Virus record (IMG/VR): IMGVR_UViG_2600255005_000005 | Direction: 5' to 3' (one strand) | Source of the DNA: a virus | Lineage: Duplodnaviria > Heunggongvirae > Uroviricota > Caudoviricetes | DNA: 14,025 nt | Part shown: positions 2,905-12,954 of the stretch, in pieces | Layout of the letters: each line of letters begins with the position of its first letter | Position numbering within the stretch: position 1 is the first letter of the stretch | Program-made: the position numbers and the translations under genes | The notes under the pieces: generated by a model | Database searches by the model: none | The model's input: the letters and a program-made list of their open reading frames with translations, nothing else | What the model was told of the DNA's origin: nothing

Positions 2905-4215
2905 TTAAATCCGAAGTGATGTGACTCTTCCGGTCGGTTTGACAATAGGGAATTGCTTAACGATGAAATAACCTCCGGCATCATTCGGGTGATCATTGCC
3001 AGATTTTTTATCAGGCTCCCCCTTATCATCCCAGACCTGTTGCTCCAGAGATTCGGCATATACCGGACAACGCTTCACATTAACTTTATAGCGACGCTCA
3101 CCATTGGCATTGCAGAACATTGCATTCATTGAGTTAACGCGATCTTTTACTGGCGGGTTCGAGCTGTTCACCACAACGTTAAAACCTGCCTGCTTAAGCT
3201 GGGCTATATCCGTCGTACTTGCGTTACTTGATTTTCTGGAATCTCCGGAAGCATCTGGATAAATATAAATCTCCCTCACTTTCCGGTAATCATGCCCGTC
3301 ATACGGCCAGAAGCGTTCTTTAATGATGCGGATCATATCCGGCGTATCGTAGGCATTGATGATTTCAGTTACCGCACATGGAAGCCCCAAACGCAGCACA
3401 TGGACGATTCCCGCCATCTTTCCAACGTTAAAATCCATCCCAATATAAATCGGCTCCCCTGGCTGCTCCACTTCTTCGCAATTATTCAGTTTCCGGTCAA
3501 ACTGATGGTAAACAGTACCACTTGTCAGGTTAGTAAACTGTCCTCGCAGATAGGCTTTAATCAGCTCTGGAGGGTATGATTCAAGAAGCGAAGGAATGTA
3601 ATCTGCTGGCAGGTTCTTTTCATTATCGAAAGTAGATGCCTGCACCAGACCATACAGTGAGGCCAGCTCTGTTTTTTCACGCACGGCTTTAACAAACTGC
3701 TCGTAGACAAATTTGAATCCTTCCGGCGTGGTTGTAACGTCAATACCGTTGCGAAGTCCATCAATCTTATAACGCATACGCGCAATTATCTTGCGCCACG
3801 CCGTTCTGGCTTTTTCCTTCGGCAAAATGTCCAGTTCATCCACCAACGCATTACCAATTTTGAAACCGACGATCGTTTGTGGCTTCTCCATCGATCTGCA
3901 GATAGTGGTTCCCCGATACTGGCGTCCGTAATAAAAGTGAACCTCTTTATTTCCCTCATTAATTTTTACGTTCAATCCCCAGTCAGCAGCAACTTCTTCC
4001 ACTGTAGGGTAAAAAATATCGCGAATTTGGGGATACGTTGGCGCAAAATATCCCTGATTTATACCTGGATGCTCCCAAATCCCCTTGCATATGCCGCCAC
4101 ACCCAACCCATGTTTTGCCCGAGCCAAAACCAGCAATATAGGCTTTAAATTTATGGGGCATTGAAAGAAATCGCGCCTGAGGCACATTAAGCGTCGGAGA
4201 GATCATCTTCATCAC
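2905..4215 (-). CDS. terminase large subunit (ATPase/nuclease)
   Basis: Walker A AGFGSGKT and Walker B-like LVDELD, with a C-terminal acidic nuclease-like region (IYIGMDFN, YIYPDASGD). Start is ambiguous among ATGs at 4215, 4212 and 4206; AAGGAG precedes them and favours 4212. Overlaps the terS 3' end. Confidence 0.85.
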   Translation of the reverse strand: MMKMISPTLNVPQARFLSMPHKFKAYIAGFGSGKTWVGCGGICKGIWEHPGINQGYFAPTYPQIRDIFYPTVEEVAADWGLNVKINEGNKEVHFYYGRQYRGTTICRSMEKPQTIVGFKIGNALVDELDILPKEKARTAWRKIIARMRYKIDGLRNGIDVTTTPEGFKFVYEQFVKAVREKTELASLYGLVQASTFDNEKNLPADYIPSLLESYPPELIKAYLRGQFTNLTSGTVYHQFDRKLNNCEEVEQPGEPIYIGMDFNVGKMAGIVHVLRLGLPCAVTEIINAYDTPDMIRIIKERFWPYDGHDYRKVREIYIYPDASGDSRKSSNASTTDIAQLKQAGFNVVVNSSNPPVKDRVNSMNAMFCNANGERRYKVNVKRCPVYAESLEQQVWDDKGEPDKKSGNDHPNDAGGYFIVKQFPIVKPTGRVTSLRI

Positions 4216-5284: not shown

Positions 5285-5536
5285 TTAGTCCTGATTTTTA
5301 TCCACCCTGAGTAGTTCGCGCAGAGCAAAGGCATCCCCTTTTCTGGCAAGCTTAAACAATGCCGCTCGTAACTCGGCTTCACCTTTCGCTCTGCCCTTAC
5401 GGATGGCCGCATAAAAATCTGTCATTGCTTCCCGATTTTCTTTCAGTCGGTTCAGATCAACATCCAGAACGTCAGCGATTTGTTGTGCAGTCATCCGGCA
5501 CGCTGCCAGAGACTCGACTTTCGAATACGGAATCAT
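5285..5536 (-). CDS. hypothetical small protein (83 aa), possible DNA-binding helper of packaging
   Basis: ATG at 5536 preceded by GGGGTGA. Stop lies 3 nt before the terS start. Basic, helical composition. Confidence 0.45.
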   Translation of the reverse strand: MIPYSKVESLAACRMTAQQIADVLDVDLNRLKENREAMTDFYAAIRKGRAKGEAELRAALFKLARKGDAFALRELLRVDKNQD

Positions 5537-6404
5537 TTGTCACCCCCATTGATATGCAGGGTGTCTTCTTCCTGTATTTTTCGTGAAGGATTTTTACTGC
5601 AGCGTTGTTCCAGGTGACCTGATGGTGAATGCGTTTATGGCTGGCACCCATCAGTGAAATTTTTACGCACGACGGCGCATACATGACGGAGTAAAAACTT
5701 TTAACGTAGGTTCCGGAATCCAGATACAGCTCGGTCATTCCGCCGCTGTTTTTCTGCGTCTGTTTCTGCCCTAACTGGACAGCACCGATCGTCATAAACA
5801 ATTCACCACAGCGACCGAGATTCGTGTACGTATTCACATCCTCGTTAATGCGCCCCATGAATGAGAACGGTCGATCAACCGAACAGATAAAGCTGTTCAT
5901 TGCCTTGCGTTTCACCCACGAAGCATGGCCGCCATTGTCACCAAGAAAATCCCCGCCCTGCGACATAGCGATGGAAAGAGCAGGTATTGATTCGTAGTAC
6001 GCCAGCATTTCAGAAAGGATCGCATCCAGTTTCCTTATCGGAAAATAGGCCTGGTCATAGTTGCGATCCACCCGAAACTGGAACTCGTGATAATCATCAT
6101 CGAGCTGAATGAAGTATTTACACCCGACCAGTTTTGCCAAGTCGAAACAGGCATTACGGGCGTAAAAAATTGAGCGGCGGTCACAGAAATTATCGGCTTC
6201 GTCAAAACGACTGGCGATATCGGCTTTGGAAAACACCAGCACCTGTTCACCAAATTCAGCCATGTACTGATGCCGTGTCTTATCTTCATCATCAACAACG
6301 ATAAAAATTTTCCCGGTATAGCCAGCACGACGCAACGTCCGGTAAGTCAGAACTTTGTCCGGTCGCCCGTGAGTCAGAATAAAGGCGCAAAAATCATCAC
6401 GCAT
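5472..6404 (-). CDS. hypothetical protein with GT-A-fold glycosyltransferase-like motifs (soluble, ~310 aa)
   Basis: Ordered motifs FILTHGRPD, IFIVVDDED and FIQLDDDYHEF (DxD), with no hydrophobic TM segment. Preferred start is the ATG at 6404 (MRDDF), which overlaps the ParB-like stop as ATGCGTGA and is preceded by GGAGGAGGA; the longest ORF would start at 6425. Confidence 0.5.
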   Translation of the reverse strand: MRDDFCAFILTHGRPDKVLTYRTLRRAGYTGKIFIVVDDEDKTRHQYMAEFGEQVLVFSKADIASRFDEADNFCDRRSIFYARNACFDLAKLVGCKYFIQLDDDYHEFQFRVDRNYDQAYFPIRKLDAILSEMLAYYESIPALSIAMSQGGDFLGDNGGHASWVKRKAMNSFICSVDRPFSFMGRINEDVNTYTNLGRCGELFMTIGAVQLGQKQTQKNSGGMTELYLDSGTYVKSFYSVMYAPSCVKISLMGASHKRIHHQVTWNNAAVKILHEKYRKKTPCISMGVTNDSVFESRVSGSVPDDCTTNR

Positions 6405-7188
6405 ATTCCTCCTCCTCACCACCATGCATGATCTCCACCATGCGCTGCGTCATCCGGACAAATCCATTTTCAATAGCCTGCTGATAATCAATGATCACCA
6501 GCGCCGACTCCTCGAAAAAACACTGAATTTCAGCGGGGGCGTGAGCGTAATAGTCCGCAATTCTGCTGAAATTAAACACCGTGTGACGTTCTGCCGCACA
6601 CAGGAGGAATTTCTCAATATCAGGCTCAAGGGAAGCCAAACGTATCCGGCTGATCAGCTCCTGCGTTTTCGTATCGTCGTACAGTTCACTGATATCCGGT
6701 TTACCGCCCGACGGCTCATAAACAGGCGTATCAATTTTCGTCGTATACGGCTCCTCCTCATTTCCTGTACCGGGCAAAACATCCGTCAACAGTTCATCAA
6801 TTTCTGTCGGGATGAAGCCTGTCAGGGAGACATCAAAATCAGCATTGATTAGGTCCGACAGCTCCATCCGCAACAGATCTTCATCCCAGCCAGCATTCAT
6901 CGGCAGGCGATTATCTGCCAGGCGGTACGCCTTTTTCTGCTCATCCGTCAGGCCAGACAGAACAATGACCGGAACAGAATCCATTTTGAGCATTTCAGCC
7001 GCCATAACACGACCGTGACCCGCAATAATTTCGCCCTTTTCGTCAATCAGCACCGGATTAGTCCAGCCGAATTGCTTAATACTTTCTACCAGTTGTGCCA
7101 CCTGCTCAGGGCTGTGCGTCCTGGCGTTGTGCGCATACGGTGACAATTCTTGTAATGGGCGATAGACTATCTTTAATTTCTCGCTCAT
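6397..7188 (-). CDS. ParB-like nuclease domain protein
   Basis: ParB/Srx N-terminal signature (NPVLIDEKGEIIAGHGRVMAA) followed by an acidic C-terminal half. ATG at 7188 with AAGGA just upstream. Confidence 0.75.
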   Translation of the reverse strand: MSEKLKIVYRPLQELSPYAHNARTHSPEQVAQLVESIKQFGWTNPVLIDEKGEIIAGHGRVMAAEMLKMDSVPVIVLSGLTDEQKKAYRLADNRLPMNAGWDEDLLRMELSDLINADFDVSLTGFIPTEIDELLTDVLPGTGNEEEPYTTKIDTPVYEPSGGKPDISELYDDTKTQELISRIRLASLEPDIEKFLLCAAERHTVFNFSRIADYYAHAPAEIQCFFEESALVIIDYQQAIENGFVRMTQRMVEIMHGGEEEEYA

Positions 7189-7202
7189 ACATCCTTGCTT
7201 TA

Positions 7203-7240
7203 TGAATAAAACGCACCCCAGCAGCCAGTGCTACTGGGGG
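7203..7240 (-). terminator. candidate intrinsic terminator downstream of trkG
   Basis: On the minus strand a ~10-bp stem hairpin (CCCCAGUAGC / GCUGCUGGGG, 4-nt loop) is followed by UGCGUUUUAUU. Confidence 0.4.
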
Positions 7241-7325
7241 CGGAGGTGTTGCTGGTAAAGTTAGGTATTGGATCAATGAGTGAGTCAACATAATATTAAA
7301 CTCACAATTATAAATCAGCCATATA

Positions 7326-8783
7326 TTAGGAGCGCCAAAAAAAACCTGAAAACAATATAATAACAGGATAAATTTCAAGGCGACCAAGAATCATAGCTAT
7401 GCACATTAAATATTTTGCAATGTCATTAAGCACTCCGAATGACGATGCAGTAGCCCCAAAACCTAATCCCATATTATTAATACATGCAGCCACTGTTGCA
7501 AATGATGTAAGAAAATCATATCCCATACCATTTAACACCAGTATAAAAAACACCGTGAAGAGAGTATAAAGAAAAAAGAAACTCCATACAGACCTCATTA
7601 CACGATCTGTAACTATCTTCCCTCCTACATTTACACTCAACAACGCTCTGGGATGAGAAAGCTGATTTATCTCGTGTTTGCTTTGTTTGAAAAGTATAAG
7701 AAATCGAAGTGACTTAATTCCACCACAAGTTGAACCTATACATCCCCCAAAGAAACTTGACAACAGCAAAAACACTATCGTGTGCGTGGGCCAGCTTGCA
7801 TAATCCTGCGTAGCTAAACCATTATCAGTGAGCATGGAGCTGGCAAGAAAAAACGAATGAATAAAACTTCCATGCAAGTCATACATACCTATATGCCAGA
7901 CCTGGAAAGAGGTAACAATGATCACCCCTAAGGCTATTAACAGAAAGAAACGAAGTTCAATATCTCTGATTAAAGGTTTTATCGTTTTCCTGCTAATAAC
8001 AATATACCAAAGAGTGAAGTTGAAAGCCGATAGCAGGGAAAAAGAACCAGCCACCAGCTCAACCAAATAGTTATTAAAATATCCGATACTCTCGCTATGA
8101 GTTGAGAAACCACCAAGCGAAACTGTGGAAATCCCGTGACAAATAGCATCAAACAAAGGCATTCCTGCAAGTCTATAACAGACAATACAAGCAATACCTA
8201 ATAAAGAATAAGTTATCCACAGTGTCCGTGACGTATCGGCCAGGCGGGGAGTGAGTTTGTCATCCTTAAATGGCCCCGGCATTTCTGACTGATAAAGCTT
8301 TGCACCACCAATACCCAATAATGGCAATACAGCAACCGCCAGAACAATAACTCCTAAACCACCTATAAAATTTAACTGTGACCGATAGTACAAATATGCC
8401 CGAGGTAATGAACTAACATCATCAATTACAGTTGCTCCTGTTGTTGTTATTCCAGAAACCCCTTCAAACAGAGCATCAATGAACGTTAAATTAAGTTCTG
8501 AGTCAATCCATAAAGGGAATGCACTAATAACAGAAAACAAAATCCAAAACATTACAATTATAATAAACCCATCACGGGTACGTAATTGAATGCCAGATTT
8601 CTTAGTTGTATACCACGCTCCGCCACCAATGCAAAAAAATATAACGAAAGTTATAAAGAAAACGAATAGGCTTTTTTCTTTATAAAACAATGCTACAACC
8701 ATTGGTGGCAACATTGAAAGACTATAGAGCCAAACCAGGAACCCACACATATGAGTAACAACTCTTACATGAGATGTATTCAT
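7326..8783 (-). CDS. trkG: TrkG-type potassium uptake protein (Trk/Ktr/HKT family membrane transporter), prophage moron
   Basis: Multi-pass membrane protein whose sequence matches what I recall of E. coli Rac-prophage TrkG (MNTSHVRVVTHMCGFLVWLYSLSMLPP...), with repeated pore-loop glycine motifs. Strongly AT-rich relative to its flanks. First ATG at 8783; an in-frame TTG at 8801 has AAGGTGG 6 nt upstream and is an alternative start. Confidence 0.9.
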   Translation of the reverse strand: MNTSHVRVVTHMCGFLVWLYSLSMLPPMVVALFYKEKSLFVFFITFVIFFCIGGGAWYTTKKSGIQLRTRDGFIIIVMFWILFSVISAFPLWIDSELNLTFIDALFEGVSGITTTGATVIDDVSSLPRAYLYYRSQLNFIGGLGVIVLAVAVLPLLGIGGAKLYQSEMPGPFKDDKLTPRLADTSRTLWITYSLLGIACIVCYRLAGMPLFDAICHGISTVSLGGFSTHSESIGYFNNYLVELVAGSFSLLSAFNFTLWYIVISRKTIKPLIRDIELRFFLLIALGVIIVTSFQVWHIGMYDLHGSFIHSFFLASSMLTDNGLATQDYASWPTHTIVFLLLSSFFGGCIGSTCGGIKSLRFLILFKQSKHEINQLSHPRALLSVNVGGKIVTDRVMRSVWSFFFLYTLFTVFFILVLNGMGYDFLTSFATVAACINNMGLGFGATASSFGVLNDIAKYLMCIAMILGRLEIYPVIILFSGFFWRS

Positions 8784-8920
8784 ATCTAAATATTCTTTCA
8801 ATTATAACCACCTTGCTGCAATATTATGATTATACTGTATAAAATTTAACTCCTCTTAGATCTTACTTCACTGTTCCTTATGAAACAATCATCAAAATGA
8901 ATCATATTGTAGTTAAGATT

Positions 8921-9385
8921 TTACTTTAAACACTGTTCGGTTATGTATTGCTGAGCACCTTCAAGTTGGGCCTGCATCATTACCAGTCGTTCCCGGAGGG
9001 TGAAATAATCCCGTTCAGCGGTGTCTGCCAGTCGGGGGGAGGCTGCATTATCCACGCCGGAGGCGGTGGTGGCTTCACGCACTGACTGACAGACTGCTTT
9101 GATGTGCAACCGACGACGACCAGCGGCAACATCATCACGCAGAGCATCATTTTCAGCTTTCGCATCAGCTAACTCCTTCGTGTATTTTGCATCGAGCGCA
9201 GCAACATCACGCTGACGCATCTGCATGTCAGTAATTGCCGCGTTCGCCAGCTTCAGTTCTCTGGCATTTTTGTCGCGCTGCTCTTTGTAGGCGGTGGCGT
9301 TATCACGGTAATGATTAACAGCCCATGACAGGCAGACGATGATGCAGATAACCAGAGCATAAATAATCGCGGCGACTCTGCTCAC
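8921..9385 (-). CDS. Rz-type i-spanin (lambda Rz-like)
   Basis: Near-identical over most of its length to lambda Rz as I recall it ([21 protein letters not shown]...[33 protein letters not shown]...). GTG start at 9385 overlaps the lysozyme TGA stop (GTGA); the longest ORF begins at a TTG at 9400. Confidence 0.85.
8980..9165 (-). CDS. Rz1-type o-spanin lipoprotein, embedded in the +1 frame of Rz
   Basis: Signal peptide plus lipobox (LPLVVVGC) and a proline-rich mature part ([24 protein letters not shown]), matching lambda Rz1. Lies entirely within Rz. Confidence 0.85.
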
Positions 9386-9921
9386 TGATCTATCCCCCAA
9401 CAGGCTAATGCGCTTTCCTGGTCACGACGAATAACCTGTCCATAGCAGTTATTTGAACGTATGCGGCAATCGCGCCCACCATCTTTTATCCACCAGCGAA
9501 TCGCCTCGCATGCACCCTTACGATCACCGGCATTCAGCCGCTTATAAAACGTCGACGGGAAACACTTACCGGGGCCAATGTTATAGGGACAAAATGACGC
9601 TATACCCGCTTTCTGTGGTTCGGTCAGTGGTACTTTAATATTGCGCTCCACCCATGCCAGCGCCTTATCACGTTCAATAGCGTTAACCTGGTCGCATTTT
9701 TCCTTCGACAGCCTCATTCCCGGTATGACGGGCTTACCATCCACCATTGTGGCACCACGACAGATGGTCCATATACCGGAACCATCGCGGTATGCCGTTG
9801 TGTGGTTACCTTCTTTTTCATCCAGAAACTGGTCGAGAATATCAGGCGCAGGCGCAGGCGCACCGACGGCAATCAGTGCCAGAACGGCAGCCGACAGGCC
9901 GTATCTGATTTTTGCGTTCAT
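9382..9921 (-). CDS. phage lysozyme (GH24-like), probably SAR-type endolysin, resembling Qin RrrQ/YdfQ
   Basis: Catalytic E-x8-D-x5-T arrangement ([18 protein letters not shown]). N-terminal weakly hydrophobic Ala/Gly-rich segment ([20 protein letters not shown]) fits a signal-arrest-release domain. Partnered with an S21-type pinholin. Confidence 0.85.
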
Positions 9922-9981
9922 GGATATTTATCAGGATTTATCGGTTTCTGAACCCTGGATATGTTTATCTGTCCCGGCCTG

Positions 9982-10012
9982 TTGAATCAGGCAAGGAATA
10001 GTTAAATACAAT
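9982..10012 (+). promoter_or_regulatory. candidate sigma70 promoter for the plus-strand 90-aa gene
   Basis: TTGAAT (9982-9987) and TACAAT (10007-10012) with a long 19-bp spacer, followed by SD AGAGAGGA and the ATG at 10027. Confidence 0.25.
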
Positions 10013-10026
10013 AGAGAGGATTGTTT

Positions 10027-10299
10027 ATGGACAATAGCACCATTTCTCTACAGGAGTTGCTCGACTGCATTTCCAAGCTTCGGGATGATGTAAATGCCCT
10101 TACTGTCGCATTTTCATATCTGGCATTCTCAATTCCCAAGGAACAAATGCAACCAACACTGGCATCGCTCCAGCTTGAATCACTCAACCCCAAATGGTCC
10201 CAGCAACAACAAAATTCTTTCAAGTGGCTGGCGGTATTACTGGAAGAAAAATATGCTGGTGAAATTACCATTTCGGCGGAGTCTTCAGTGAACCAGTAA
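10027..10299 (+). CDS. hypothetical protein (90 aa), antisense-oriented gene inserted inside the lysis cassette
   Basis: ATG at 10027 with SD AGAGAGGA 7 nt upstream; helical E/K/L-rich composition. Its 3' end overlaps the 3' end of the convergent 114-aa gene by 35 nt. The ORF track's 10021 start is a TTG. Confidence 0.5.
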   Translation: MDNSTISLQELLDCISKLRDDVNALTVAFSYLAFSIPKEQMQPTLASLQLESLNPKWSQQQQNSFKWLAVLLEEKYAGEITISAESSVNQ

Positions 10300-10609
10300 T
10301 TCTTCCCGGCAGTTTTCCTTTGTAGGTTATCCACACACCCTGCGCCTCTAAAATTATGGGGCGCTTTTCCGGTGACTGCTCATCCCCTTCACATAACCCT
10401 GCAGCAACATCCAGGAAGACCTGTCTGATGCTCCTTCTGGCTGCTGCCTCATAAAACTCCAGCGCGGCACCTTCAACACGGTCCAGCGAGATGTCCAGGT
10501 CTAAAATTTCACCGTCAAAGCGTTTTTTGTCCCGTAACGCTAAAGTTACCGTAACTTTATTCTCAAAATTGCGGATCCCTTTCACAATCAGTTCATAGTT
10601 TTGAGTCAT
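10265..10609 (-). CDS. hypothetical lysis-cassette protein (114 aa), in the position of Qin ydfR between holin and lysozyme
   Basis: ATG at 10609 lies 4 nt after the holin stop, with GGGGAGAG upstream, so it is translationally coupled to the holin. Soluble, charged protein. Confidence 0.6.
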   Translation of the reverse strand: MTQNYELIVKGIRNFENKVTVTLALRDKKRFDGEILDLDISLDRVEGAALEFYEAAARRSIRQVFLDVAAGLCEGDEQSPEKRPIILEAQGVWITYKGKLPGRITGSLKTPPKW

Positions 10610-10613
10610 TGAA

Positions 10614-10829
10614 TTACTCTCCCCGTGCAGCCTTACGCTTATCTTCTTTAATCTTGAAATAAAGATTTGTCAGATACGTCAACAGGCCAAACACCAGACT
10701 ACCCAGCACACCTATTGCTGCCCACTGTGAGGGCGTGACTCTATCGAGCAACTGTAAAAACCAGTAGCCAGCACTGCCTGCGGAGGTGCCATAGGCGACA
10801 CCTGTTGTTAACTTATCCATGGATTTCAT
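10614..10829 (-). CDS. class II holin (phage 21 S / EssQ-EssD type pinholin) with dual-start motif
   Basis: [71 protein letters not shown] closely matches S21 as I recall it: two TM segments, a Met1-Lys-Ser-Met4 dual start and a charged C-terminus. The upstream in-frame extension to 10922 is rejected. Confidence 0.85.
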
Positions 10830-11168
10830 AACCCCCACCTCGCAGATGCGGGCGCTGTGTAATGGAAACAAAAAATGGCCACCAGCGGCCCGTAAAAAAC
10901 ACCCCGTCAAAAGCACCGGCATCCGCAGATGCCCTTTGCGTGGCGTTATTTGATGCGCGCCAGGTGTGGCGCAAAGAAATGAAATAAGACTTATCGAAAA
11001 TTAAGGTTAATTTGATGATTTAAACCACTTCTGAAGCTTAGTAGTATGAACATGTCCCCAGAAGGGGCCAATACTTATTATTCTTCATGGACTTTGTCCC
11101 GCGGTCTTAATCCGACGACCGCGCTACTTTTCACCCTCTCGCAAATTGCTATCTAAAGGACGTTGTCC

Positions 11169-11759: not shown

Positions 11760-11777
11760 ATTGGTTCTTCAGGGGAG

Positions 11778-11803
11778 CGATATCACCGAGCGATATCACC
11801 GAG
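11778..11803. repeat. perfect tandem direct repeat, 2 x 13 bp (CGATATCACCGAG)
   Basis: Read directly; lies 18 nt upstream (transcript sense) of the tRNA-Thr 5' end. Confidence 0.6.
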
Positions 11804-12004
11804 CAAAGAAGAGTTCCCCCTCAGAACCGTTTTCGATGATACGATTTAATATTCCAATCGCAACAACACTTTGCGTCAAGCTATGTAAATTTATTTATGT
11901 ATTTTTATTTTATGTGAACATTTCACCTTCACTTAAAATATACGCGACAATATATAAACAAATTTATTTTGAAGGCAATATTAAATGTCGTTTCTTATAT
12001 CACA

Positions 12005-12040
12005 CCATAATAACAACAAAACCCGCTTGATGGCGGGTTC
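12005..12040 (-). terminator. candidate tR'-like intrinsic terminator downstream of the Q-like gene
   Basis: On the minus strand AACCCGC-CAUCAA-GCGGGUU followed by UUGUUGUUAUUAU, about 85-120 nt downstream of the Q-like stop. Confidence 0.45.
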
Positions 12041-12091
12041 TATTAAAGTTTAATTGCGCTTGATTCGCCTCGCGATACAGCTTTGCGAAGC

Positions 12092-12128
12092 GTAGCAAAA
12101 TTGAAGCAGTTTACGCGTAAAAAATCAA
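12092..12128 (-). promoter_or_regulatory. candidate late promoter (PR'-like) at the 3' end of the Q-like gene
   Basis: On the minus strand TTGATT, a 17-nt spacer, then TTCAAT. Weak hexamers; the call leans on the position between Q and the terminator. Confidence 0.2.
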
Positions 12129-12667
12129 GCCGTTTTTTGAGCGAATGATTCTCGCATGGGAATGTATAGCGCATACTCAGCAACGGCCAACCAATTAGCA
12201 ATTCGCTTTTCGCATGTGCTAAAACACCACTCTGGGTGTGCATCATTTAGCAATTCAGCCATTTTGCGTTTGGTCATCCCCCGCCCCTCATACCGTTGCC
12301 GAAGGACGCTAATCAATCCTGGATGCTCTGCCAGCACCTCACTTATGACCCGATCAATACATAACGCCTCTGCATCAGTACAATGCGCCAGCCAGCTCTT
12401 TTGCTTGCCGTTGATCATCTCTCTCAAAAACGCTTCCAGCTCAGCTTTCTCTATTCCCGCTTTTTTCATTCTGCGCAGGGCTTCATTGATGGCTGTTTTC
12501 GTCAATTTTTTGGATGCCAACAACTGATTGAACATATTTCCTGACCTGCCACCGCCAATATACGACCAGCGCCCCCACATACGCAGTTTGCCCTGAATCC
12601 AGACACTTTCCAGCGTGGCGAGACGAAGGTGTTCTCCGCTTTTTCCTGTATTCGTTGGGTAAATCAC
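12125..12667 (-). CDS. putative late antiterminator Q-like protein
   Basis: Last gene of the nin-like cluster, immediately upstream of the terminator/tRNA/lysis region. GTG start at 12667 overlaps the upstream TGA (GTGA) and has AAGGAGGG 7 nt upstream. Contains an N-terminal W-G-x-W motif and Cys residues. The longest ORF to 12787 would overlap the upstream gene by 124 nt. Confidence 0.5.
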   Translation of the reverse strand: MIYPTNTGKSGEHLRLATLESVWIQGKLRMWGRWSYIGGGRSGNMFNQLLASKKLTKTAINEALRRMKKAGIEKAELEAFLREMINGKQKSWLAHCTDAEALCIDRVISEVLAEHPGLISVLRQRYEGRGMTKRKMAELLNDAHPEWCFSTCEKRIANWLAVAEYALYIPMRESFAQKTA

Positions 12668-12954
12668 AAATATCCCTCCTTTCTCCAGATTTCTTGTGTG
12701 CGAAAAACACCTTCTGCATGCATCAGGCGTAATTCTTCTTTGGTGTAATCGCTGGTTTTTACCCGCCCGTCGATTAGATCGTGGCATGAGCTACAGGCAA
12801 TCGCCGCCTGCATATCGTGTGGTTTTGTCGCTATTCCGCACGTTCCCGCCAGTCGGTAATGCGCCAGCACAGACGTTTCCGGATCGTGATTGCAGTAGCC
12901 AGGAATTCTGACGGTGCACATCTGCCCCCGCGCCGCTTTACGTAAATCCACCAT
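12664..12954 (-). CDS. DUF1364-family protein (YbcO-like putative nuclease of lambdoid nin regions)
   Basis: 96 aa, MVDLRKAARGQMCTVRIPGYCNHDPETSVLAHYR...IACSSCHDLIDGR, with the conserved Cys pattern I recall for DLP12 YbcO. Its ATG overlaps the upstream stop (TAATG). Confidence 0.7.
   Translation of the reverse strand: MVDLRKAARGQMCTVRIPGYCNHDPETSVLAHYRLAGTCGIATKPHDMQAAIACSSCHDLIDGRVKTSDYTKEELRLMHAEGVFRTQEIWRKEGYL

Follow-up and report, generated by a model that had tools for sequence, protein, structure and literature searches.

We examined a 14,025-nucleotide (nt) stretch of viral DNA (Caudoviricetes; IMG/VR record IMGVR_UViG_2600255005_000005), hereafter called the window, in which positions 12,005 to 12,667 hold, on the minus strand, the gene for a 180-amino acid (aa) protein of the family DUF1133 and the promoter-like and terminator sequences that follow it. 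We find that this locus, with a probability of about 80%, controls the late genes of a Rac-like lambdoid prophage and is built like the corresponding cassette of phage 21. Sequence profiles and a structure model support the placement of the protein as a divergent, distant member of the antiterminators typified by phage 21 Q (Q21), and the layout of the locus is identical to that of phage 21. The switch would be of an ordinary kind; DUF1133 is an experimentally unstudied branch of the Q21 type, differing in its ring-forming segment and in its type of promoter.

The DUF1133 protein and its relationship to Q21

The open reading frame (ORF) runs from the GTG at 12667 to the TGA at 12127-12125, and its start overlaps the stop codon of the upstream ybcO gene as GTGA. 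Relatives begin at the same residue (MIYP...), and residue 1 is also where the alignment with the Pfam model of DUF1133 (357 bits) begins. Hence the gene product has 180 aa, and a 220-aa form that starts at an ATG is ruled out on the same grounds. A first-pass annotation of this DNA, made from the letters alone, had called the gene Q-like and proposed a profile search against Q antiterminator families. Run here, that search bears the assignment out. Besides DUF1133, the protein matches PHROG 753, which is annotated 'anti-termination protein Q-like', and, marginally, PF06530 (27.4 bits versus a cut-off of 26), the family of the Q proteins of phages 21 and 933W (10.1101/651190). NCBIfam returned no match for the protein or its neighbors. 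A phmmer search of 1.8 billion representatives retrieved DUF1133 members only, in a handful of full-length clusters that all belong to Enterobacterales; thus, the family is narrow, and no sequence links it directly to PF06530. It is named only as a domain of unknown function, yet it is common in enterobacterial prophages, among them those of Escherichia coli, Salmonella, Citrobacter, Klebsiella, Pantoea, Serratia and Yersinia. Only one paper that we found names DUF1133; it reports the family from 13 Shiga-toxin phages under the label 'Q antiterminator (HHPred)' (PMC8136144).

A family profile was needed to reach Q21 because a single-sequence phmmer search of the PDB gave noise, with Q21 at E = 0.86. 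Built from 55 DUF1133 members, the profile matched the Q21 chains in the PDB (6P18 and 6JNX) at E = 3.9e-10 in two colinear segments, and hhalign aligned it with residues 5-151 of the phage 21 protein (97.1% probability, E = 5.9e-11), although identity to the window protein is only ~16-19%. The AlphaFold (AF2) model has a mean predicted confidence (pLDDT) of 73.7. Its C-terminal half stands at ~90 (residues 101-170 at 88-95), and its N-terminal third and an insertion are of low confidence. Like Q21, the model is all-helical with a core like sigma region 4. When it was compared with the PDB using Foldseek, ranks 1-12 were all Q21, with a probability of 1.0 and target-normalized template modeling (TM) scores of 0.66-0.74; the next match had an E value above 1.

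Residues that matter in Q21 can be placed on this alignment. Q21 W26 contacts the beta' dock of RNA polymerase (PMC6606751), and it is aligned with W34, which is invariant in DUF1133. The Q21 recognition helix T125-C126-R127-R128 is aligned with T151-C152-E153-K154, after which comes R155. Two of these residues, T151 and R155, do not vary within the family, and C152 hardly does. Q21 touches its Q-binding element (QBE) through A124, T125, R127 and R128; the window protein has E153-K154 at the R127-R128 positions (TCEKR, compared with TCRRE in phage 21).

A prophage of E. coli JNEC-KY178 matches the window with 100% identity. We recognize it as a Rac-type lambdoid prophage because it carries recET, kilR, sieB, racR, ydaSTUV and trkG, and its late region is intact. 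The first pass had allowed that the true Q gene might lie outside the window. The complete JNEC-KY178 prophage has no second gene of any Q family between its replication and lysis genes.

Candidate promoter, candidate pause hexamer and terminator after the gene

We gathered ~240 DUF1133 loci from viral contigs, species-representative genomes and phage records; once redundancy was removed, 141 versions of the sequence that follows the gene were left, and these are the relatives referred to below. What the first pass had described here stands: a weak promoter-like pair overlapping the Q-like stop, which we identify as TTGATT, 17 nt, TTCAAT, an intrinsic terminator, placed there ~85-120 nt downstream and found 80-114 nt after the stop codon, and tRNAs and lysis genes beyond. 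The extended -10 (TGn), a conserved pause-like hexamer of the form TAnnnT and a candidate Q-binding element are additions to that description (Table 1).

Table 1. Features of the late control locus and its neighbors in the window.
Feature	Position	Strand	Remarks
DUF1367/NinB-like gene	13553-12954	minus	
YbcO/DUF1364 gene	12954-12664	minus	
Shine-Dalgarno sequence AGGAGG	12675-12680	minus	7 nt before the GTG start; read from sequence
Q-like antiterminator gene	12125-12667	minus	DUF1133; 180 aa, GTG start, TGA stop
Candidate -35 TTGATT	12123-12128	minus	overlaps the Q stop codon
Candidate Q-binding element, two 8-bp subsites TTTTACGC and GTAAACTG	12107-12122	minus	in the promoter spacer; inferred
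Candidate extended -10 TG-c-TTCAAT	12100-12108	minus	hexamer 12105-12100
-10-like hexamer TACGCT	12089-12094	minus	candidate sigma-dependent pause element
Predicted short terminated leader RNA, ~80 nt, 6S-like	12011-12093	minus	from promoter and terminator positions
Conserved initially transcribed block TCGCAAAGCTGTATCGCGAGGCGAA	12064-12088	minus	+6 to +30
Intrinsic terminator (tR'-like)	12011-12045	minus	GC-rich stem, 6-nt loop, U-tract
tRNA-Thr(TGT)	11759-11684	minus	
tRNA-Gly(TCC)	11680-11606	minus	
Lysis genes	8921-10922	minus	P21-type holin, DUF1327/YdfR, lysozyme, Rz

A consensus scan expects 2.8 +/- 1.7 promoter-like sites by chance in this 1.7 kb, and the pair alone is not above chance. 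Its weight comes from conservation among relatives, not from single-sequence significance. About 130 of the 141 relatives fit one scheme: TTGnnn, 16-18 nt, a hexamer of the TGnTTnAAT type, 4-7 nt and TAnGCT. Loci that depart from this geometry do so because their -35 hexamers are weaker (TTGCAG, for example). Variation is almost absent across the family at the TG of spacer positions 15-16 and in the hexamer TTnAAT, and, given that the TG stands one base before the first downstream hexamer, we read the two as an extended -10. Variants of the -10 include TAAATT, TATCTT and TACGAT, and some relatives have a near-consensus pair at the same places (TTGACT-16-TAAATT), with the same hexamers as lambda PR'. 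Where the family member is longer (192 aa), the end of the coding sequence contains the -35, and it is the -10 that shares bases with the stop codon, whereas in the window the stop codon is overlapped by the -35; the DNA elements are thus kept regardless of coding context. The motif from promoter to pause hexamer occurs once in the window.

The second downstream hexamer, TACGCT, begins 5 nt past the -10 and fits TAnnnT; its counterpart TAnGCT stands 4-7 nt after the -10 in the ~130 relatives that fit the scheme. The gap between the two hexamers holds the most variable positions across the family. Among the closest relatives of the window it reads TTTGC, TCCGG or CCCAG between invariant hexamers. 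Transcription probably starts at A12093, 7 nt after the -10 and inside TACGCT; the first pass had placed the start near 12092, which is plausible. With a start at A12093, TACGCT spans -1 to +5 and is shifted from the -10 by 11 nt, compared with 12 nt in lambda and 13 nt in phage 21. On account of this shift, the phage 21-like order of parts and the single base that separates TACGCT from the phage 21 pause element, we consider it more likely than not that TACGCT is a sigma-dependent pause element.

The comparison with phage 21 can be made part by part, as its genome annotation draws on published experiments. It lists Q, a -35 (TTGACA), the QBE (ATTGAGCA and AATGAGCA), a -10, the start, a pause element TAAGCT at +2 to +7, a terminator, tRNA-Asn, tRNA-Thr and the S21 holin. 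In the window these parts recur in an identical sequence that likewise closes with a pair of tRNAs and a P21-type holin. Relatives, too, have the Q gene in this position, directly before a promoter and ahead of late genes. The two differ in that the window has an extended -10 without the A at position 2, a gap of 5 nt rather than 7 nt between the -10 and the pause hexamer, and a leader of ~80 nt rather than ~50.

The QBE core of phage 21, TGAGC, belongs to the upstream subsite and starts 26 nt before the pause hexamer. At the same distance the window has TTACG (12120-12116); its two subsites have only the core nnAC in common. We took the 5-mer at this distance in every DUF1133 locus and sorted the loci by recognition helix. 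Helices TCRRR or TSRRR, which resemble the TCRRE of Q21, go with TGAGC or TGAAC in 20 of 20 loci. TTGCG accompanies TCESR, TCETR and TCEGR in 76 of 78 loci, which represent three promoter geometries (17/5, 18/4 and 16/4), and the window's own class, TCEKR, has TTACG in all 31 of its loci. TCERR is paired with TGTCG, and TCQRR with TGAC(A/C), the latter across two geometries. The constant distance is that from the core to the pause hexamer and not that from the core to the -35, as one would expect of a protein that loads onto polymerase while it is halted at that hexamer. The pattern argues for a Q-binding site at 12122-12107 with the core TTACG, which we regard as somewhat better than an even bet.

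The terminator is strong; it comprises 13 pairs between 12045 and 12014 and a T-tract that extends to ~12011. A terminator is found in 139 of the 141 relatives, ending 49-114 nt past the stop codon (median, 77), compared with 111 of 705 (16%) random 210-nt windows from the same loci. The relatives' terminators have 44 different stem sequences; the presence of a terminator has therefore been kept, whereas its sequence has been replaced. The predicted leader of 83 nt folds at -30.1 kcal/mol (z = -4.4 versus shuffles). Its initially transcribed block, TCGCAAAGCTGTATCGCGAGGCGAA, is conserved across several recognition-helix classes and may tune pausing or loading, or matter in the RNA.

A 5' leader hairpin (12092-12066), seen when the single sequence was folded, was dropped because relatives do not support it. 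RNAalifold gave no pairs for it across relatives, and pair counts equal those of shuffles (63.9% versus 62.6%), with no support from covariation. Against Rfam, the window leader stays below the gathering cut-offs of STnc370 (30.4 bits; cut-off, 54) and isrK (14.4 bits; cut-off, 50), and isrJ is not listed. The sub-threshold STnc370 match spans 12010-12076 and covers GCGAAUCAA and the terminator; the similarity may come from 3' leader parts that are common to prophage late leaders.

A proposed antitermination switch and its alternatives

From this arrangement we infer the start site, the pause, Q binding and read-through, and the switch would operate as follows. The host sigma-70 RNA polymerase would initiate at TTGATT, 17 nt, TGcTTCAAT, most likely at A12093. 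Sigma region 2 would then bind again at TACGCT (12094-12089), so that polymerase pauses with ~11-16 nt of nascent RNA. Without Q, polymerase would escape and terminate at 12045-12011, leaving an RNA of ~80 nt. Once the early operon makes Q, the protein would bind the promoter spacer at the core TTACG, load onto the paused polymerase and narrow the RNA exit channel. The modified polymerase would pass the terminator into the tRNAs, the lysis genes and the morphogenesis genes; the lysis genes at 8921-10922 presumably depend on this read-through.

Several observations weigh against this interpretation. The DNA-binding loop of DUF1133 is 13 residues shorter than that of Q21. Furthermore, ~30-45 extra residues, modeled around residues 51-94 as low-confidence helices (pLDDT 46-65), replace the linker between Q21 helices H2 and H3, which in Q21 forms part of the ring ('nozzle') in the RNA exit channel; DUF1133 keeps H1, with W34, and an H2-like helix (residues 43-51). 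The consensus scan did not call the pair TTGATT/TTCAAT, since the second base of TTCAAT is not the key A; this promoter may lack strength or need its TG motif. The predicted start lies within the pause hexamer, an arrangement 1-3 nt tighter than that of lambda or phage 21. The link between helix class and spacer core could reflect co-inheritance of gene and site rather than recognition; however, co-inheritance would leave unexplained why the class with the Q21-like helix matches the phage 21 core TGAGC. In the literature that was searched, neither this locus nor any DUF1133 protein has a reported transcript, pause or read-through.

The two downstream hexamers could also be assigned differently. 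TACGCT might be the real -10, extended by TGc, with a start near 12082 and a leader of ~70 nt. In that case TTGATT and TTCAAT would be protein-binding sites rather than -35 and -10, and any pause signal would be found further downstream, for example, at TATCGC (12077-12072). We judge this assignment to be unlikely. TACGCT does have the key -10 bases A2 and T6, a pair that TTCAAT lacks, it is preceded by TGc in the window, and TAnGCT is conserved as well as the first hexamer. However, no class of relatives has a -35-like hexamer 16-18 nt upstream of TACGCT, and the TGn before it is not conserved (low information), whereas the TG before the first hexamer is near-invariant. It is also at the first position that relatives have near-consensus pairs such as TTGACT-16-TAAATT. 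The proven pause element of phage 21, TAAGCT, stands at the place of TACGCT, 26 nt from the Q-binding core, and the 5' end of IsrJ, the leader RNA of a cassette with a phage 82-type Q (Q82), lies ~4 nt after its -10 and ~2 nt before its second hexamer.

Termination itself might have no part in the regulation. A sigma-region-4-like protein could bind the spacer and activate a poor promoter, the hairpin being a leaky attenuator or unrelated. The window promoter is indeed poor by consensus, and the fold of Q21 resembles region 4 of extracytoplasmic function (ECF) sigma factors (10.1101/651190). We nevertheless consider this activator reading highly improbable. A terminator 49-114 nt downstream has been kept in 139 of the 141 relatives despite complete sequence turnover, and this makes little sense if termination is not what is regulated. 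Among solved structures, the closest homolog is a proven antiterminator with the same site layout, its polymerase-contact residues are kept (W34 = W26), and the near-consensus promoters of some relatives need no activator. Least probable of all is that the terminator at 12045-12011 ends the early nin operon and that the late promoter lies downstream of it, for instance, at TTGCGA-16-TATCAT (11863-11836). The consensus scan does list two sites (9/12 each) between the terminator and the tRNAs rather than TTGATT/TTCAAT, but the number of its matches equals chance expectation. Most relatives have other cargo in place of the sequence past the terminator but keep the promoter-to-pause unit together with Q; transcription from an unregulated promoter in that sequence would also reach the lysis genes in the lysogen. 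The promoter-like sites between the terminator and the tRNAs were thus rejected as the late promoter, as that stretch is not conserved with Q.

Our preferred reading, a phage 21-like antitermination cassette, can be extended, but we hold the extension only tentatively and think it more doubtful than not. In it, DUF1133 would be a structurally distinct Q21-type branch, with a 30-45-residue insertion in the ring segment, a shortened DNA-reading loop and a start-overlapping pause at extended -10 promoters, and possibly with a recognition code and a cis block of its own. Such a code may pair helix residues 153-154 with the 5-mer that lies 26 nt before the pause hexamer. As for the strongly conserved +6 to +30 block, it may represent one more cis element, so far undescribed, that either determines pausing or loading or seeds a regulatory RNA derived from the leader. 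The natural helix and site pairs offer a direct way to probe how Q21-type proteins read DNA. For annotation, the name Q21-like antiterminator can be given to DUF1133, and the ~80-nt leader can be listed as a candidate prophage small RNA (sRNA).

Related cassettes, cargo and prophage context

The proposed switch follows a logic known from other lambdoid phages. In the Q/PR'/6S/tR' system of lambda, a constitutive late promoter is followed by a sigma-dependent pause at a -10-like element (+1 to +6), a short terminated RNA is made in lysogens, and read-through depends on Q (PMC6606751, PMC7547250; established knowledge). Lambda Q (PF03589) is unrelated to the window protein in family and fold, its leader is 194 nt long, and it requires an extra -35-like element. 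The Q82-type (PF06323) cassette consists of the Q gene, TTGCAA-17-TATATT, 5 nt, a second hexamer, a short leader and a terminator. We find that Rfam isrJ (RF01393) is the short terminated leader of such cassettes. IsrJ was detected in Salmonella as a 74-nt RNA whose 5' end was mapped by primer extension (PMC2330248). This end lies ~4 nt after the -10 TATATT (its 4th to 7th nt) and ~2 nt before the second hexamer, and by analogy it is an experimentally seen counterpart of the arrangement proposed for the window. The Q82-type differs in its Q family, and the window leader has no Rfam isrJ match. However, 3' leader and terminator parts have been exchanged between DUF1133 and Q82 cassettes, as in a DUF1133 locus (L103) that scores 38 bits on Rfam isrJ. 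Cassettes with isrJ were seen in contigs L244 and L264 and in ~120 other viral contigs (L243 onward), with TTGCAA-17-TATATT, TAAATC..TATCGT and a terminator; in Gifsy-1-like contigs, isrJ lies behind an inserted isrK-anrP module.

AntQ of Gifsy-1 interferes with termination (PMC4825925). The possibility that AntQ is a DUF1133 protein was set aside, because Gifsy-1-like contigs that carry isrJ have a PF06323 Q. AntQ thus appears to be Q82-type, and its functional data are not transferable to DUF1133. StxS is a regulatory sRNA that derives from the terminated PR' transcript of Shiga-toxin phages and is made in lysogens (PMC7547250). It has no sequence relation to the window leader, which could, by analogy, have a function of its own.

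The cassette has sharp boundaries and variable cargo. Homology between the window and other E. coli prophages stops at 12063 (+31) or, just past the terminator, at ~12012. In a Salmonella genome (L208), isrK, a C4-like RNA and an antirepressor gene come after the DUF1133 gene as an inserted ant module, and a window-type unit (TTGCAT-17-TTCAAT-5-TACGCT) with the conserved block stands 870 nt downstream of Q. The match ends and this displaced unit therefore indicate that the segment from the -35 to ~+30 moves as one piece. What lies downstream varies among phages, from tRNAs and sRNA-like elements to pertussis-like and LT-II toxin genes.

Rfam isrK follows the DUF1133 gene at 3075-3276 in locus L205 (75.6 bits) and at 3088-3268 in L208 (67.1 bits). 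In L205 it overlaps the Rfam model of the 'a1, b1 targets of C4'. In both loci isrK is followed by the Rfam C4 antisense RNA and, in L208, by an anrP-like antirepressor gene. Judged by sequence, the isrK-orf45-anrP locus looks like the immI (c4-icd-ant) module of phages P1 and P7, a resemblance that is not mentioned in the IsrK paper.

In phage Rac-SA53 (L081, 3625-4856), the pertussis-like toxin subunit genes eplB and eplA come directly after the DUF1133 cassette, and in another relative LT-II genes do so. This switch family would therefore control toxin genes in some E. coli. The switch precedes toxin genes in phages of type II enterotoxigenic E. coli, such as Rac-SA53, and knowledge of its promoter, pause site and binding site would tell which switch controls those genes.

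In the window, 365 nt of non-coding DNA separate the ORF from tRNA-Thr, and tRNA-Thr and tRNA-Gly are the first cargo past the terminator. Both tRNAs are ~98.7% identical to host thrU and glyT of the tufB operon. The host match consists of two pieces and skips tyrU, located between thrU and glyT, which suggests that the pair was captured from the host and that tyrU was then lost. Directly upstream of tRNA-Thr, at 11765-11863, a 13-bp sequence, GCTCGGTGATATC, stands twice in tandem between the arms of an imperfect inverted repeat (GGTTCTGAGGGGGA ... TCCCCTGAAGAACC). The promoter-like TTGCGA-16-TATCAT lies at 11863-11836, and the segment may be a separate tRNA promoter with a processing stem.

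Minus-strand order continues after the lysis genes with trkG and then the terminase and head genes. The trkG gene, which encodes a host-type potassium transporter, lies between Rz and the terminase genes; together with the genes that follow it, one ParB-N-like and one for a TET-associated glycosyltransferase (GREB1-related), it forms late-operon cargo at 5472-8801.

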